From NCBI GenBank assembly GCA_963736005.1, contig CAVTNB010000001.1:864001-928000 (forward strand): a stretch of DNA of 64,000 nucleotides. The letters are read 5' to 3'. Positions within the stretch are counted from its first letter, which is position 1; each line of letters opens with the position of its first letter. The translations under genes were made by a program, and so were the position numbers. The notes under the pieces were generated by a model that saw only the letters and a list, made by a program, of their open reading frames with translations, ran no database searches and was not told where the DNA came from. Below are positions 3-5,617 of the stretch, piece by piece. This stretch comes from an uncultured Pseudomonadota bacterium. Its GTDB lineage: Bacteria; Vulcanimicrobiota; Vulcanimicrobiia; Eremiobacterales; Eremiobacteraceae.

Positions 3-1655
3 CCGGGCGACAGCCTCGTCCTAACGTACGAGGATCTGCTGCGCGAAACGTGCCGACTCTCAAACGCGCTCAAGGAGTTGGGGATCAAGCGAGGCGACCG
101 GGTCGCGATTTACATGGGCATGGTGCCGCAATTGCCGGCCGCGCTGCTCGCGTGCTCGCGCCTTGGCGCTATCCATTCAGTCGTGTTCGGAGGTTTTTCG
201 GCGGAGAGCTTGCGCGACCGGATCAACGACGGCGAGTGCAAGGTGCTGATCACGCAGGACCAGTCCTGGCGCCGTGGCGGGAAGGTTCTTCTAAAGAACA
301 TCGCTGACGAGGCGTTACGAGGCGCGGAGTGCGTCGAAAAAGTCATTGTGCTGCGGCGCGTCGGCGACCCGGTGGATTGGCAGCCGGAACGAGACGTTTG
401 GTACCACGACATTGTCGCTCGCCAAAGCGACCAGTGCGAACCGGAGCGCATGGATGCTGAGGACGTGCTCTACATTTTATATTCGAGCGGCACGACGGCC
501 AAGCCTAAAGGGATCGTGCACACGACCGGCGGTTACTTGACCGGCGTCGCATCCACCCATCGCAACATCTTCGATATTAAAGAAGATTCCGACATCTTTT
601 GGTGCACGGCGGATATCGGATGGGTGACCGGCCATTCCTACATTGTCTACGCACCGCTTGCGAACAGGACGACAAGCGTCATCTACGAGGGCACCCCAGA
701 TTTTCCAGACAAAGATCGCTTCTGGGCCGTTGTCGAAAAATATAAGGTGACGATCCTGTACACGGCGCCAACGGCGATTCGGACATTCATGAAATGGGGC
801 ACCGAGTATCCTGCGCGCCACGACATGTCATCGTTGCGTTTGCTGGGCAGCGTGGGCGAGCCCATCAATCCCGAGGCATGGATTTGGTACCAGCAACACA
901 TCGGCGGAGGCCGCTGCCCCGTGGTGGATACATGGTGGCAGACGGAGACGGGCATGATCTTGATTTCACCTCTGCCGGGAATCACCGCCACAAAACCGGG
1001 GTCTGCAACATTTCCCTATCCTGGTGTTTTCGCGGACGTCGTGAACGGCGACGGTCAGCCCGTGCCGCTTGGCGGCGGCGGCTTCGTCGTCATCACCAAA
1101 CCTTGGCCGGCCATGCTGCGTACCCTGTGGAAGTCGCACGACCGCTACTTGCAAACCTACTGGAGCCGGTTTCCAAAGCAAGGCTATTATTTTCCAGCCG
1201 ACGGTTGCAAGCGTGATGAGGACGGATACTACTGGCTCCTTGGCCGCGTTGACGACGTCATGAACGTTTCCGGCCATCGCATCTCGACCACAGAAGTCGA
1301 GAGCGCCTTTGTCGATCACCCAAAAGTTGCCGAAGCCGCGGTCGTTTCAAAGAAAGACGACATCACGGGTGAAGCGATTGCAGCGTTCGTCACCCTCAAG
1401 GGCGGCGGCATTGGCTCGCAAACCGATGCCGACGAACTGCGCAAGCATGTTGCTTCGAAGATCGGCGGATTCGCGCGACCCAAATTTGTCACGTTTACCC
1501 CAGAGCTCCCCAAGACCAGATCGGGGAAGATCATGCGGCGCCTCCTGCGAGATGTCATGGAAAACCGGCCGCTCGGCGATACGACCACGCTCGCCGACGC
1601 AACGGTCGTCAAGAATCTCGCCGAAGCCGCACAATCATCGAAGGCGGAGGAGTAG
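3..1655 (+). CDS. acs: Acetyl-CoA synthetase (5' end outside window)
   Basis: YSSGTTAKPKG AMP-binding loop, TADIGWVTGHSY, DTWWQTETG, LPKTRSGKIMRR. Frame is open back to the window edge. Confidence 0.96.
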   Translation, partial: PGDSLVLTYEDLLRETCRLSNALKELGIKRGDRVAIYMGMVPQLPAALLACSRLGAIHSVVFGGFSAESLRDRINDGECKVLITQDQSWRRGGKVLLKNIADEALRGAECVEKVIVLRRVGDPVDWQPERDVWYHDIVARQSDQCEPERMDAEDVLYILYSSGTTAKPKGIVHTTGGYLTGVASTHRNIFDIKEDSDIFWCTADIGWVTGHSYIVYAPLANRTTSVIYEGTPDFPDKDRFWAVVEKYKVTILYTAPTAIRTFMKWGTEYPARHDMSSLRLLGSVGEPINPEAWIWYQQHIGGGRCPVVDTWWQTETGMILISPLPGITATKPGSATFPYPGVFADVVNGDGQPVPLGGGGFVVITKPWPAMLRTLWKSHDRYLQTYWSRFPKQGYYFPADGCKRDEDGYYWLLGRVDDVMNVSGHRISTTEVESAFVDHPKVAEAAVVSKKDDITGEAIAAFVTLKGGGIGSQTDADELRKHVASKIGGFARPKFVTFTPELPKTRSGKIMRRLLRDVMENRPLGDTTTLADATVVKNLAEAAQSSKAEE

Positions 1656-1659
1656 GAAG

Positions 1660-3555
1660 TTAGGCGCCGGCGGCGCTGAGGATGAGATCGGTGCCAAGCC
1701 CAGCTGCAAACCCAAGGAATATCCCAACCGTGGCGAGTTCTCGGAACCCAAACCTTGCCCCGACTTTCGTCATCTCTGAAATCACGTAAATGATTGCTCC
1801 AGCCGCGAGCGTTAAGAAGAGCACGGACAGCACTGGCGACACGAAGTGGTAGCCGATGACCGTTCCCAAAAACGTCGGGCCGCCGCCAATGAGACCAAGC
1901 CGGACGATCGTTGAGACCTTCGCGCCCCCCGAACCCGCCAGCGGCGCCGCGATCCCAAAACCTTCTGTCATGTTGTGCAGCCCAAACCCGATGATAAGCA
2001 GCAACGCGAGCTGAATGGCTCCTGTGGCTGCGGATTGGCCGATTGCCAATCCTTCACTGAAGTTATGCAAGCCAATGCCGGAGGCGATCATCGTTGCCAG
2101 GCCCAGGGGACTTAAGTTACCGAGCGAGGTCTTTGCAAGAAACGACCTCGAGAAAAAGACAAGGCTGAGCAAACCGACGGCAAGACCGCCGAGATAGACA
2201 AACAACAACCCCAAGAATTGCGCTCTGGGTGCACCGAGCGCGATGTTGCGGAGGGCGCTCTCGACCGGATCGCTCGCCTGGCGCAAGATGTCGAACAGTA
2301 AGAAGAACAAGATCCCAATTGCGATCGCGTTGAGAAACGCAATGCCTTTGGTTGAGAGATTCTTCATCGTCGCGAACGGCAAGCCGAAAAAGATGGTCAA
2401 GCCAGCGATCGCGCCAAGAATGTAAACGGCAATCGGCGCAAGTGGAGGGCCACCTCCCCCTGAGCCGCCTTCACCACCGCCCCCGGCCGGCGCCATCACC
2501 ATGACATCCTGGGTCGCCATGTCCTTCAATCTGTTTGGTGCGTTCTCGTATTGAATCGCCGTGACGAGACCGCCCGGACCGACCGCGCCATTCATCATGT
2601 GATCGAGCACGTGGCAATGCACCATCCACGTACCCGGCTTTGCATTTGCAACGAACGCAATGTCGCGCGTCTCTCCCGGACCGATGCTCAAAGTGACCAT
2701 CAATTGTCTGTTGGCGGGCGCCACGGTCTGACCGTCTATCGCCACCACCGCAAATCTGTGGCCGTGCAAGTGCATGGTGTGAAACTCGGTACCGCTGATG
2801 TTGATCTCGCGGATGCGCACGTGTTGGCCGCTGCGAACCATGAATGGTTTGGTGAGCGGATAACTCTTGCCGTTGATGCTAAAGTAGTTTTCTGCGTCGG
2901 ACACGATGCGCCAGGACGACAAAAGCATGAGGTAGTCGTGGTCGTAGCGTTCTTTTGGTTTCGCTTCGTCAACGACAACGGCGCCATAGAGACCGCGATC
3001 GAGCTGGTTGAGATCATCGTAGTGGGTGTGATAGATGTATGTGCCCGGGGTACTCGCCGTAAAGTTGTACACGAATGACTGGCCAGGGCCGACCGCGTTT
3101 TGGCTCATGCCGGGAACGCCATCCATGTCTGCGTCGACGGGCAGCCCATGCCAGTGAATTGTCGTTGGCTCAGGCAAGTTGTTGACCAGCACGACCTGGA
3201 CGCGGTCGCCTTCGCGAACATGAATTGTCGGGCCAGGGACGGTTCCGTCAAAAGTCCAGGCCTGTTGAACGACTCCAGGAGCGACTTCCCATGGCGCCAC
3301 CTCCGCGTACAGGCAAAATGTTTTCACCTTCGCCTGAGAAACTGGCGGTAGCGAGGGAAGCAGATCGAAATCGGCTTTCGCTTGAGCCTCGGCGCTCTCC
3401 CGAACCGACGGTTGCTGCAGACAACGCGCGCTTGCGCTGTCTGACCCGGTGGCATGGGAAGGTTGCATCGGCATCGAGAGCGCCGCGGCACGCAAGGTCA
3501 CAAGGAATGCCAACGCGAGCGGGAGGACCATTAAACGAAGAGCATTGATTCTCAC
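1660..3555 (-). CDS. Fusion: secreted two-domain multicopper oxidase + ZIP-family divalent metal transporter
   Basis: Signal peptide; Cu motifs HWHG, YHTH, HTMHLHGH, HCHVLDH; Gly-rich linker; multi-TM domain with GIGLHNFSEG and GLHNMTEG ZIP motifs. GTG start overlaps the upstream stop (GTGA). Confidence 0.9.
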   Translation of the reverse strand: MRINALRLMVLPLALAFLVTLRAAALSMPMQPSHATGSDSASARCLQQPSVRESAEAQAKADFDLLPSLPPVSQAKVKTFCLYAEVAPWEVAPGVVQQAWTFDGTVPGPTIHVREGDRVQVVLVNNLPEPTTIHWHGLPVDADMDGVPGMSQNAVGPGQSFVYNFTASTPGTYIYHTHYDDLNQLDRGLYGAVVVDEAKPKERYDHDYLMLLSSWRIVSDAENYFSINGKSYPLTKPFMVRSGQHVRIREINISGTEFHTMHLHGHRFAVVAIDGQTVAPANRQLMVTLSIGPGETRDIAFVANAKPGTWMVHCHVLDHMMNGAVGPGGLVTAIQYENAPNRLKDMATQDVMVMAPAGGGGEGGSGGGGPPLAPIAVYILGAIAGLTIFFGLPFATMKNLSTKGIAFLNAIAIGILFFLLFDILRQASDPVESALRNIALGAPRAQFLGLLFVYLGGLAVGLLSLVFFSRSFLAKTSLGNLSPLGLATMIASGIGLHNFSEGLAIGQSAATGAIQLALLLIIGFGLHNMTEGFGIAAPLAGSGGAKVSTIVRLGLIGGGPTFLGTVIGYHFVSPVLSVLFLTLAAGAIIYVISEMTKVGARFGFRELATVGIFLGFAAGLGTDLILSAAGA

Positions 3556-4301
3556 TTCACCGACCGCATCTTGGCGTGCTCGGCCTCAGACTTCTTGACC
3601 GGCGCGACGAGAATGTCACTCGCCAGCTGCGAGCTGATCGTGTGTTCTTCACCGCCCACACAAATGGTCAACAACCCCGCTGCGCGCTCACGCCGCGCGA
3701 CGCGTAGTCTCACCCCCGGCCGCAATCCAACATCCGACAGAAATCTCAAGAGCTCTGGGATGTCGTGCTTCACTTCGAGGATAGACGCTTCCGTGTTGAG
3801 CGGCAGATCGAAAAGATCGACGGCCTCTTCGTGATGCCAAAGCGTGCCGTCAGCATGCGGAATCGGATGCCCGTGTGGGCAGGTGGCGGGGTGGTTGAGA
3901 AACTTTGCCAAGTGCTCTTCGACTGCTGGAGAAATTGCATGCTCGAGTCGGCACGCCTCATTGCCCGCAACTTCCCACGACATGCCAAGACAATCCACGA
4001 GCAGCCGTTCGGCTAACCGTTGCCGCCGGAGAATAACGGCGCCGATTCGCGCGCCCTTGGGAGTGGGCACGACGCCGTGGCGTCCTTCATGCATGACATA
4101 GCCGTCGGCGTCAAGCCGCTTGAGCATCGCCGAAACTGACGCTGGAGAAATCGCCAACTCCTGAGCAACAGCCGATGTCGAAACAGGTTCCTCACCCTCG
4201 TACAAACGCACGATGGATTTAAGGTACATCTCGACGTTTGGGCTGATCTCAGGTTCGTCGGCTTCGGGAGACGGCGGAAACTTCAGGGCGGAATTGTTCA
4301 T
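3552..4301 (-). CDS. DtxR/MntR-family metal-dependent repressor with C-terminal FeoA/SH3-like domain
   Basis: EMYLKSI wHTH, ACRLEHAIS, CPHGHPIP, LSDVGLRPG. Confidence 0.93.
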   Translation of the reverse strand: MNNSALKFPPSPEADEPEISPNVEMYLKSIVRLYEGEEPVSTSAVAQELAISPASVSAMLKRLDADGYVMHEGRHGVVPTPKGARIGAVILRRQRLAERLLVDCLGMSWEVAGNEACRLEHAISPAVEEHLAKFLNHPATCPHGHPIPHADGTLWHHEEAVDLFDLPLNTEASILEVKHDIPELLRFLSDVGLRPGVRLRVARRERAAGLLTICVGGEEHTISSQLASDILVAPVKKSEAEHAKMRSVK

Positions 4302-4323
4302 CGACGGCAGCTCCGACGGGTGT

Positions 4324-4363
4324 AATTAGGCTTGCCTTATTCTTCACTTAGGCACGTCAATTC
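4324..4363. promoter_or_regulatory. Putative DtxR/MntR-type operator plus a weaker second site
   Basis: AATTAGGC-TT-GCCTTATT (4324-4341, one mismatch from a palindrome) and ACTTAGGC 22 bp later, just upstream of the regulator ATG. Resembles TTAGG-N4-CCTAA boxes. Confidence 0.6.
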
Positions 4364-4517
4364 TTCTAAATCAGGGCTGCCACAACGTTGCGGGTTGAGG
4401 GCGCAGATTCAGGATCGAGCCGTTGACGCGGGTCACATTGCGGGACGCAGGTTAGCGAGGCGCAACTCGGGCAATAAGTGGGTCGTTGAACTAATGCGGA
4501 GGTAACCACGCATTTAG

Positions 4518-4988
4518 ATGAAGCTAAAGATTATTGCCGGCGTGCTAGTCGCGCTGCTGTTTGTGTCGATGACACCGGGGCCGCGGGCTTTAGCCGATGG
4601 GGCAGCGAGCACGCGAAACATTCTGCTCGGGATTGGCGCGGCGGCAGGCACGCTCCTTATCATTAATCACAACAAGCAGGTGCACGCCAAATATGCCCAA
4701 GATGCCGCGGCGCAGGCTGCGCTCGCCAATCAACGCAACGATGCCGAAGCCGCCTATCAGTCAGAGGTTCGTGCGTACAAACATCAAGTTGCCGTTAGCG
4801 ACAATCTCCAGAAAGAGGTTGCACTCCAGGACGCTACTATCCAGCAGCAAAAAAAGCAGCTAGCGGAGGTAGGGGTATCCGTGCAGCCAGTTGCGCAAGC
4901 ACCGGTCATCCATGCCGGAAGCTCGCACTCAGCGCCGGCGAAGATGGCGATGAGTCAGATGGTTTCGTACGGTTGGGGAACGCTCTAG
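4518..4988 (+). CDS. Secreted/membrane hypothetical protein with coiled coil
   Basis: Signal peptide ending ALA, hydrophobic segment, Gln/Ala-rich helix; GGAGG upstream. Confidence 0.75.
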   Translation: MKLKIIAGVLVALLFVSMTPGPRALADGAASTRNILLGIGAAAGTLLIINHNKQVHAKYAQDAAAQAALANQRNDAEAAYQSEVRAYKHQVAVSDNLQKEVALQDATIQQQKKQLAEVGVSVQPVAQAPVIHAGSSHSAPAKMAMSQMVSYGWGTL

Positions 4989-5068: not shown

Positions 5069-5467
5069 ATGGGGATGAAAAGAGTATGGGGTGCCGCCTG
5101 TGCGGTACTGCTTCTCGGTGTTTTTAGTTTGTCGGGATGCGGCAGCAAGGGCGGGGCGGCCAACACGGAAACGAACCTTACAGATCAGGTTACCCGTGCG
5201 GTGTACAATAACGACATGGCCGGAGTAACTTCAAACTTCAACAGCGATCTGGCTCCTCAGGTCACGCGAGCGAGTGTCGGTACGCTTTCCGACAAGATGC
5301 ACGCGCTTGGTAACTACCAAGGCCTTACTGAGGCGGCGACGGACGTCCCATCGCGACGCTATACGTTCGATGCGAAGTTCGATAACGGTGATATGACCGT
5401 CCTCGTCCGCCTTGACACAAATGGGAAGATCGCGGCATATCGCATAGTCCCAGGCGCGCCTCACTAA
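5069..5467 (+). CDS. Small lipoprotein (DUF3887/NTF2-like)
   Basis: Lipobox LSGC; compact domain ending GKIAAYRI. Confidence 0.7.
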   Translation: MGMKRVWGAACAVLLLGVFSLSGCGSKGGAANTETNLTDQVTRAVYNNDMAGVTSNFNSDLAPQVTRASVGTLSDKMHALGNYQGLTEAATDVPSRRYTFDAKFDNGDMTVLVRLDTNGKIAAYRIVPGAPH

Positions 5468-5470
5468 AAT

Positions 5471-5617
5471 GTAGGGGGCGATTGGAAAATCGCCCCTTCG
5501 TCTTGTGTAGCGGCGACTGTAAAGTCACCCTTTCTTTTGCGTAGCGGGCGACTGTCAAGCGCCATGTAGGGGGCGATTGGAAAATCGCCCCTTAGCAGCG
5601 GACCTTTAGGTCCGCTC
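5471..5617 (+). repeat. Mosaic cluster of five GTAG-type REPs (families A, B, B, A, C)
   Basis: A GTAGGGGGCGATTGGAAAATCGCCCC at 5471-5496 and 5566-5591; B at 5507-5530 and 5541-5563; C TTAGCAGCGGACCTTTAGGTCCGCTC at 5592-5617. Lies between convergent genes. Confidence 0.92.

Follow-up and report, generated by a model that had tools for sequence, protein, structure and literature searches.

Background

Oxidase-assisted iron uptake is known from yeast Fet3p-Ftr1p and from FtrABCD/EfeUOB, in which an extracytoplasmic copper oxidase is paired with a permease under iron-type regulation. Fet3p has an acidic iron site and an axial Leu. Ftr1p is described as transporting only the Fe(III) that Fet3p produces in situ (accessible part of PMC11966278). 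In this work, we analysed a 64,000-nucleotide stretch (the window; coordinates are positions within it) of contig CAVTNB010000001.1 from an uncultured bacterium of the Eremiobacteraceae, whose genome is here called G000, and describe a gene that joins a multicopper oxidase and a ZIP permease in a single polypeptide, encoded directly behind a DtxR/IdeR-family repressor. The locus shares with the above systems the extracytoplasmic copper oxidase, the permease and the iron-type regulation, and the same operator precedes the FTR1/EfeU gene in one relative (G033). It differs from them in its ZIP permease, in a two-domain (trimer-forming) instead of a three-domain oxidase, and in its one polypeptide. 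Oxidase and permease are co-expressed by virtue of the single open reading frame (ORF). A genome search found no FTR1 in G000, nor does the fusion protein contain an FTR1 domain; since there is no FTR1-family permease of the Fet3/Ftr1 type (OFeT), the fusion is an analogue, not a member, of Fet3-Ftr1 systems.

A second point of comparison is the MCO1 and ZIP pair of archaea, for which Kerou 2016 is reportedly cited. In ammonia-oxidising archaea the two genes are unfused and adjacent, and their products have been hypothesised to oxidise Cu(I) to Cu(II) and then import it (accessible parts of PMC7785015, PMC5817080 and PMC7819960), while ZIP-mediated Fe(II) uptake has been suggested in N. maritimus (PMC9723733). 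Both cases, compared by description only, have a two-domain oxidase with an axial Leu that is encoded together with a ZIP, and both invite an oxidise-then-import hypothesis; the archaeal genes, in contrast, are separate and have been read in terms of copper. The sequence-only reading, an earlier account of this DNA, had called the module possibly undescribed, and within the searchable literature no title or abstract reported a fused oxidase-ZIP, subscription papers and supplements lying outside that coverage. The fusion is real and conserved, and apparently undescribed.

The fusion gene and its product

The ORF at 1660-3555 (minus strand) is a single frame of 631 codons with no internal stop, and it encodes, in this order, a signal peptide, a two-domain multicopper oxidase, a linker and an eight-helix ZIP. 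The sequence-only reading had proposed this arrangement in one ORF, with four copper motifs, a type-1 Cys in domain 2 only, and coupling to a DtxR-family gene; the uninterrupted frame, the positions of the motifs (HWH134-136, HTH176-178, HTMHLHGH259-266 and HCHVLDH313-319) and the overlap of the fusion's GTG start with the TGA stop of the DtxR gene (GTGA) bear it out. Pfam places Cu-oxidase_3 at residues 89-198, Cu-oxidase_2 at 222-325 and Zip at 487-616. The N-terminal hydrophobic segment spans residues 8-26, and a Tat motif occurs in 0/121 fused proteins examined. AlphaFold2, run on a 114-row alignment, returned a mean predicted local distance difference test (pLDDT) score of 84.7 and a predicted TM-score of 0.69, with eight long helices from residue 374 onwards and a disordered linker (pLDDT <50). 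The Gly-rich stretch of the linker is AGGGGEGGSGGGGPP (2443-2487); across 121 fused relatives the linker varies in sequence and measures 27-45 amino acids (aa).

Two of the checks suggested with the earlier reading, on the linker and on the domain architecture, gave concordant results. A 24.6 kb contig from an independent run (X1) spans 1600-4394 with 98 substitutions and 0 gaps, and a second contig, of 151 bases (X8), is identical across 2458-2608, both being contigs and not raw reads. A domain-architecture search showed that the fusion recurs in relatives, with the reverse order in other phyla, and all of the 120 matches listed for residues 340-631 are one chain with the oxidase before the ZIP. 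A frameshift or chimera at the linker was rejected because of these gap-free independent contigs and because relatives keep the same single-chain order.

The oxidase half has two cupredoxin domains, all trinuclear His motifs and one type-1 His-Cys-His in domain 2, a layout that we take to be type B, and its copper ligands are invariant or nearly so across 114 sequences. The best Foldseek match of the fusion is the two-domain laccase 2zwn (E 8e-29, root-mean-square deviation 1.8). Compared with the two-domain multicopper oxidases of the PDB (2zwn, 3g5w, 3gdc, 7rab), the fold is the same, identity is 27-37% and the copper ligand set is complete; unlike them, the fusion oxidase is tied to a membrane protein, has a loop insertion ahead of the axial Leu and reads HTMHLH in place of HPMHLH, and the type-1 Cys lies in domain 2 whereas 2zwn has its HCH in domain 1. 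Two-domain oxidases are active as homotrimers, and non-coordinating axial residues raise their potential (accessible part of PMC3738974). Acidic residues set the fused oxidases apart: D181, D186, E222, D318 and the axial Leu are present in 113-115 of 115 forward and 58-60 of 60 reverse fusions, against 16-20 of 69 unfused oxidases for the four acids and 37/69 for the Leu. E256/257 is likewise almost fixed in fused oxidases and occurs in about one quarter of unfused ones. Several of these acids adjoin the type-1 histidines in sequence, where they recall the acidic iron site of Fet3p.

The ZIP half is recognised by its eight transmembrane (TM) helices, its TM4 and TM5 metal motifs and its homology to BbZIP (profile match, E 1e-11), as judged from AlphaFold2, profile and alignment. 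Its family scores lie below threshold, with 27.9 bits against the Pfam PF02535 cut-off of 35.1 and 39 against 252 for NCBIfam ZupT; several close stand-alone or tailed relatives exceed the Pfam cut-off. Like BbZIP/ZupT-type ZIPs it has eight helices, HNxxEG in TM4 and ExG in TM5; unlike them, it is subthreshold, has lost the TM6 Glu (GGGPT), carries an acid at TM2 position 422 and is fused to a redox domain. The same ZIP subfamily is also found joined to cytochrome c, to a cupredoxin, to a cupredoxin plus helical domain, or to a nameless domain of ~110 aa (P0349, P0363, P0370, P0377, P0257, P0368 and L060:4498-5577).

The repressor, its operator and the genes that share it

The upstream gene encodes a repressor whose best PDB match is IdeR of M. 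tuberculosis (1fx7). Its primary site M25/C117/E120/H121 corresponds to M10/C102/E105/H106 of IdeR, the set of an iron sensor, and is kept in 34/34 aligned repressors from fusion loci; the MntR pattern, Asp/Asn plus Glu for Met10 plus Cys102, is absent. Within the DtxR family, Met/Cys is the iron-type and Asp/Glu the manganese-type set (accessible parts of PMC4805248 and PMC10317159). G000 encodes two other DtxR proteins, both of the Asp/Glu type, matching the MntR pattern, and each beside an NRAMP gene, and the only Fur-family match sits in a znuABC-like cluster. The two Asp/Glu-type genes (C1:66.5 kb and C1:438.0 kb), each preceding its NRAMP gene, have a common upstream stretch, AATTGTCAACCATGGTTAACAT, likely their operator. 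The fusion-linked repressor resembles IdeR/DtxR in its Met/Cys/Glu/His primary site and in a CCTAA-repeat operator of half-site form, and differs in the loss of His79 and His98 and in its regulon, which in G000 is not broad and amounts to a single strong site; its CPHGH motif is as in SloR.

The operator is a TTAGG-N4-CCTAA palindrome (often TAAGG), arranged in tandem and found ahead of the operon in 25/25 distinct upstream regions. This is the half site of IdeR, a protein that can also activate genes through tandem boxes (accessible part of PMC10317159); the full 19-bp IdeR box was not seen. The proximal copy is the best matrix match in the whole G000 genome (28.6 bits; runner-up 14.4), and the scan gave no wider regulon there, with 8 sites of at least 12 bits against 10-11 with shuffled matrices. 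In the second family the operator stands at the start of 7/7 fusion genes with the DtxR gene elsewhere; at the fusion loci it adjoins or overlaps the start region. Rfam gave no match in five loci.

Other genes under the same operator point to iron. G033, which lacks the fusion, has two perfect sites before FTR1/EfeU and sites with one mismatch before feoAB, an NRAMP and a polyferredoxin/CxxCH pair; FeoB and FTR1 are each present in one of 41 genomes, namely this one. One NRAMP subtype has the operator in 9/10 copies, against 0/46 upstream regions of other NRAMPs (17 genomes; 3/59 fetched regions, at contig ends, left out). Among the 41 genomes, which are kin and include the unpublished G008, G011 and G013, on which alone no claim depends, 29 have the fusion only, 8 the operator-bearing NRAMP only, 2 both and 2 neither, a nearly complementary pattern. 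Stand-alone ZIPs of the subfamily carry the box in 67/124 loci, compared with 0 for the reversed pattern and 1/2331 background windows. One reverse fusion has a Fur-box-like sequence 47 bases upstream (12/14 match to the consensus, the best in its 13.7 kb locus, n=1); the same scan of 10 other loci found nothing upstream of the ZIP.

Several further occurrences of the box were noted. In G033 a perfect operator lies between nifH-like and ferredoxin-reductase-like genes (L113), and another falls right on the start of an msrB-like gene (L114). In five Actinomycetota loci (L069, L078, L079, L087, L099) DtxR-like genes with HADELG replacing EACRLEH diverge from stand-alone ZIPs, and a TAAGG-N4-CCTTA box is present. 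An exported protein of ~370 aa with an N-terminal P-x-F-A...CxxCH, a C-terminal aromatic residue and no Pfam/NCBIfam match occurs at L244-L256 and L259 (G012, G016, G025-G027, G030, G031, G035, G038-G040), with a weaker homologue in G000 at C1:936.9 kb, outside the window; 12/14 copies have the same operator, and YceI and, in one case, a three-domain oxidase are among the proteins encoded nearby. It presumably resembles the Cyc2 cytochrome-porins, and if so it may serve iron acquisition rather than lithotrophy. Iron oxidation has been predicted in Eremiobacterota (PMC13594681).

Distribution and origin of the fusion

The search that returned the 120 oxidase-then-ZIP matches listed above, the named ones being Eremiobacterota, admitted proteins of 347-1105 aa only. 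In the 41-genome set the fusion-type ZIP is present in 31: G000, 23/24 of its own family, 7/15 of a second family and 0/1 of a third; the relatives carrying it are mostly Eremiobacterota by NCBI name. Where contigs permit, the ZIP is in frame with the oxidase in all ZIP-positive genomes except G022, in which the fusion gene (L111) has a frameshift inside oxidase domain 2, by sequencing error or inactivation. A scan of 185,579 genomes yielded at least 80 loci; among the 80 listed, 16 are of fusion type (14 whole and 2 cut by contig ends), and a DtxR gene lies directly upstream in 14/14 of the whole ones. The other 64 are ZIPs with no oxidase in the available flanks, 13 of them next to a DtxR gene; they come from Chloroflexota, Actinomycetota, Spirochaetota, archaea and other groups. 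Among 149 new top matches of a profile search against 1.84 billion representatives there were 2 more forward and 3 reverse fusions, and an atlas search gave one match, an 89-member cluster that is probably the fusion family itself. Databases label the fusion proteins by one domain only.

The reverse order, ZIP before oxidase, is present in Bacillota, Actinomycetota, Deinococcus and Proteobacteria. When one reverse form was used as query, 75/120 matches listed were ZIP-oxidase fusions, with source names including Actinoallomurus, Aneurinibacillus soli, Kyrpidia, Alicyclobacillus, Deinococcus and proteobacteria; in the remaining 45 the ZIP had a different tail, with CxxCH (cytochrome c) in 8, a cupredoxin-like domain in 12 long proteins and something else in 25. 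No reverse fusion was found in 401 genomes of the phylum of G045, in a search without positive control.

In a quick ZIP tree of 43 rows the forward fusions form one clade (support 100 in the Shimodaira-Hasegawa-like approximate likelihood ratio test, SH-aLRT) and the reverse ones fall elsewhere, and joint monophyly was rejected by the approximately unbiased (AU) test (p-AU 0.016, P0124 left out of the constrained group). In a larger quick tree of 110 rows, which raised a long-branch warning, the forward fusions fell into two groups. In a 44-row oxidase tree, both orders cluster with four unfused oxidases, two of them named as Bacillota, and two other sequences (SH-aLRT 94, not starred). Since the ZIP tree separates the two fusion orders and the oxidase tree groups them, these trees indicate at least two separate joinings of a single oxidase lineage with a single ZIP subfamily.

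Some individual sequences deserve mention. P0157 is a reverse fusion with degenerate ZIP motifs and an intact oxidase. In G025 an oxidase of the fused lineage (L108:4332-5549) has one C-terminal hydrophobic stretch and neither ZIP nor operator, and that genome carries an operator-controlled NRAMP in place of the fusion ZIP. Unfused Bacillota oxidases (P0129) have a helical N-terminal domain; a likeness to that of FTR1 was considered and dropped, as there was no BLAST similarity and no informative Pfam/NCBIfam match. L023 and L026 are titled Acidiferrales and Proteobacteria; these titles look wrong because their proteins are the same as those of G001 and G003, of the window's genus.

Proposed function and alternatives

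The sequence-only reading had left the metal as Mn/Fe and the repressor as DtxR/MntR. The repressor's ligands, the sharing of its operator and the separate Mn- and Zn-type regulators of the genome favour the iron half of that wording over the manganese half, and the metal is likely iron. The redox-coupled uptake module that the sequence-only reading put forward is in keeping with what the searches covered. The fusion module probably imports iron by some route. Specifically, we hypothesize, with a probability of roughly 0.45, that the single chain oxidises Fe(II) and hands the iron directly to the attached ZIP, because an iron-starvation gene whose protein oxidises Fe(II) next to an importer is best understood if the oxidised iron is then passed on. 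The DtxR protein would bind the operator and repress its own operon when iron is sufficient, and iron starvation would switch it on. The oxidase would lie on the outer side of the cytoplasmic membrane, linked to TM1, and would trimerise, gathering three ZIP domains; the acids beside the type-1 copper would give it metals, not phenols, as substrates. As in yeast Fet3p-Ftr1p, with the ZIP replacing Ftr1p, it would be oxidation that makes uptake selective for iron and drives it; this is the weakest step of the proposal.

A number of observations weigh against this hypothesis. ZIPs are carriers of divalent ions, and NRAMPs also carry Mn. No ZIP column is common to forward and reverse fusions yet absent from stand-alone ZIPs, and the transport site H/N/E/H/N/E is the same in 77 stand-alone ZIPs, among them the 64 whose available flanks hold no oxidase, so that nothing indicates an Fe(III)-adapted pore. 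The conserved acids could derive from shared ancestry of the fused oxidases. At the ancillary site of the repressor, His79 and His98 of IdeR are replaced by Q94 and G113, with E98 at the position of Glu83, and the repressor orthologue has Glu at position 10 in 11/16 genomes of other families, G033 included. Most of the 21 operator sites of G033 (3 Mb) precede unrelated genes, and a reversed control pattern gave 46. The genomes compared are related and G000 is 84% complete. The reverse fusion of Deinococcus lies in a plasmid Cu/Zn island among Cu ATPases, a CDF and an ArsR gene. Finally, an Asp/Cys hybrid, PgMntR, controls a FeoB-type manganese transporter (accessible part of PMC4805248).

A first alternative is that the ZIP carries Fe(II) in the ordinary way and the tethered oxidase is a helper during iron starvation that releases iron by oxidising catechol or humic ligands, or removes Cu(I) near the open importer. 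All the evidence on iron regulation fits it equally, as do the unaltered ZIP site, found also in stand-alone ZIPs of which more than half share the box type, and the flexible, low-confidence linker. We nevertheless hold it unlikely, since oxidising Fe(II) next to an Fe(II) importer would be counter-productive unless the two are coupled, the conserved acids suggest a cation as substrate, and fusion in both orders seems to exceed the needs of a loose helper.

It is less probable that the module imports manganese or is otherwise linked to Mn, with an MntR-like sensor in control. In favour are the operator, common to an NRAMP and to FeoB, both able to carry Mn, the Glu10/Cys102 orthologues of the repressor and the precedent of PgMntR; against it stand the Met/Cys site in every fusion-linked repressor copy of the window's family, the two further regulators of this genome, which are of the Asp/Glu type and accompany NRAMPs, and the two perfect operators before FTR1. 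A similarly improbable reading takes the module for a copper importer, the oxidase turning Cu(I) to Cu(II) and the ZIP importing it as proposed for the archaeal pair. It would require no new ZIP chemistry, it would suit the Cu/Zn island of Deinococcus, and it follows a published model, in which the N. viennensis pair showed mild induction under Cu limitation (log2 0.81 and 1.33) and MCO1 also has the axial Leu (accessible part of PMC7785015). Still, DtxR-family proteins are described, in the accessible sources, as Fe or Mn sensors, and no copper gene was seen under the operator, which FTR1 and feoAB share. Export, with the ZIP running outward and the oxidase trapping the metal outside as in ferroportin-hephaestin, is very improbable, for although an outer-face oxidase and the tandem-box activation known for IdeR would suit it, the operator is common to importers, and its place, adjoining or overlapping the start region, is that of a repressor site.

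Extending the hand-off hypothesis to the family, we tentatively suggest that this ZIP subfamily may be a redox-coupled iron permease that moves Fe(III) made in situ, a convergent single-chain Fet3-Ftr1, and the main iron entry of most sampled Eremiobacterota; we regard this wider claim as possible and rather doubtful. G000 may have other iron routes besides the fusion, because it has 20 TonB-receptor matches and two PF01497 proteins.

Features of the locus

The features of the operon are collected in Table 1. Divergent from the operon, and sharing the intergenic region with the operator, are genes for two small exported proteins at 4518-4988 and 5069-5467 (no Pfam match; weak DUF3887), which are syntenic in 9-10 related loci. 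Between convergent genes, at 5470-5595, there are two copies of gtagggggcgattggaaaatcgcccct and further short repeats, REP-like in appearance.

Table 1. Coordinates of the repressor-fusion operon and its operators in the window.
Feature	Position	Strand	Basis or remark
Fusion gene, 631 aa	1660..3555	-	ORF, Pfam/NCBIfam domains, AlphaFold2
Predicted Sec-type signal peptide, aa 1-26	3478..3555	-	Hydropathy and motif count
Oxidase domain 1, aa 76-200; HWH and HTH trinuclear-cluster ligands, no type-1 Cys	2956..3330	-	
Oxidase domain 2, aa 204-338; HTMHLHGH, HCHVLDH, axial Leu330; conserved E222, E257, D318	2542..2946	-	
Linker, ~35 aa	2437..2541	-	Gly-rich part 2443-2487
ZIP domain, aa 374-631, eight helices; D422, E594	1663..2436	-	AlphaFold2, profile, alignment
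ZIP TM4 motif HNFSEG	2050..2067	-	
ZIP TM5 motif HNMTEG	1960..1977	-	
ZIP TM6 GGGPT where BbZIP has GLMEP	within 1663..2436	-	
DtxR/IdeR-family repressor, 249 aa, CPHGH motif, FeoA-like domain	3552..4301	-	Pfam, alignment
Proximal operator AATTAGGC-TT-GCCTTATT (TTAGG-N4-CCTAA, IdeR half-site form)	4324..4341	.	Upstream conservation, matrix scan
Second, weaker operator copy	4347..4362	.	Partly conserved tandem site 22-23 bases farther upstream

Significance

If the hand-off hypothesis is true, the ZIP family would gain a redox-coupled mode of transport, and oxidase-assisted iron uptake would have a second, unrelated solution. The hand-off between oxidase and permease, difficult to address in two-protein systems, becomes directly testable in one chain by disabling one half, and among carriers of the reverse form some are cultured, judging by source name (Kyrpidia, Aneurinibacillus soli, Alicyclobacillus cellulosilyticus, Deinococcus sp. 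KNUC1210). The fusion would also be a system in which to probe the oxidase-ZIP model put forward for ammonia-oxidising archaea, and it would offer an answer to the question of the iron supply of a soil phylum in which FeoB and FTR1 occur in only one of the 41 genomes searched.

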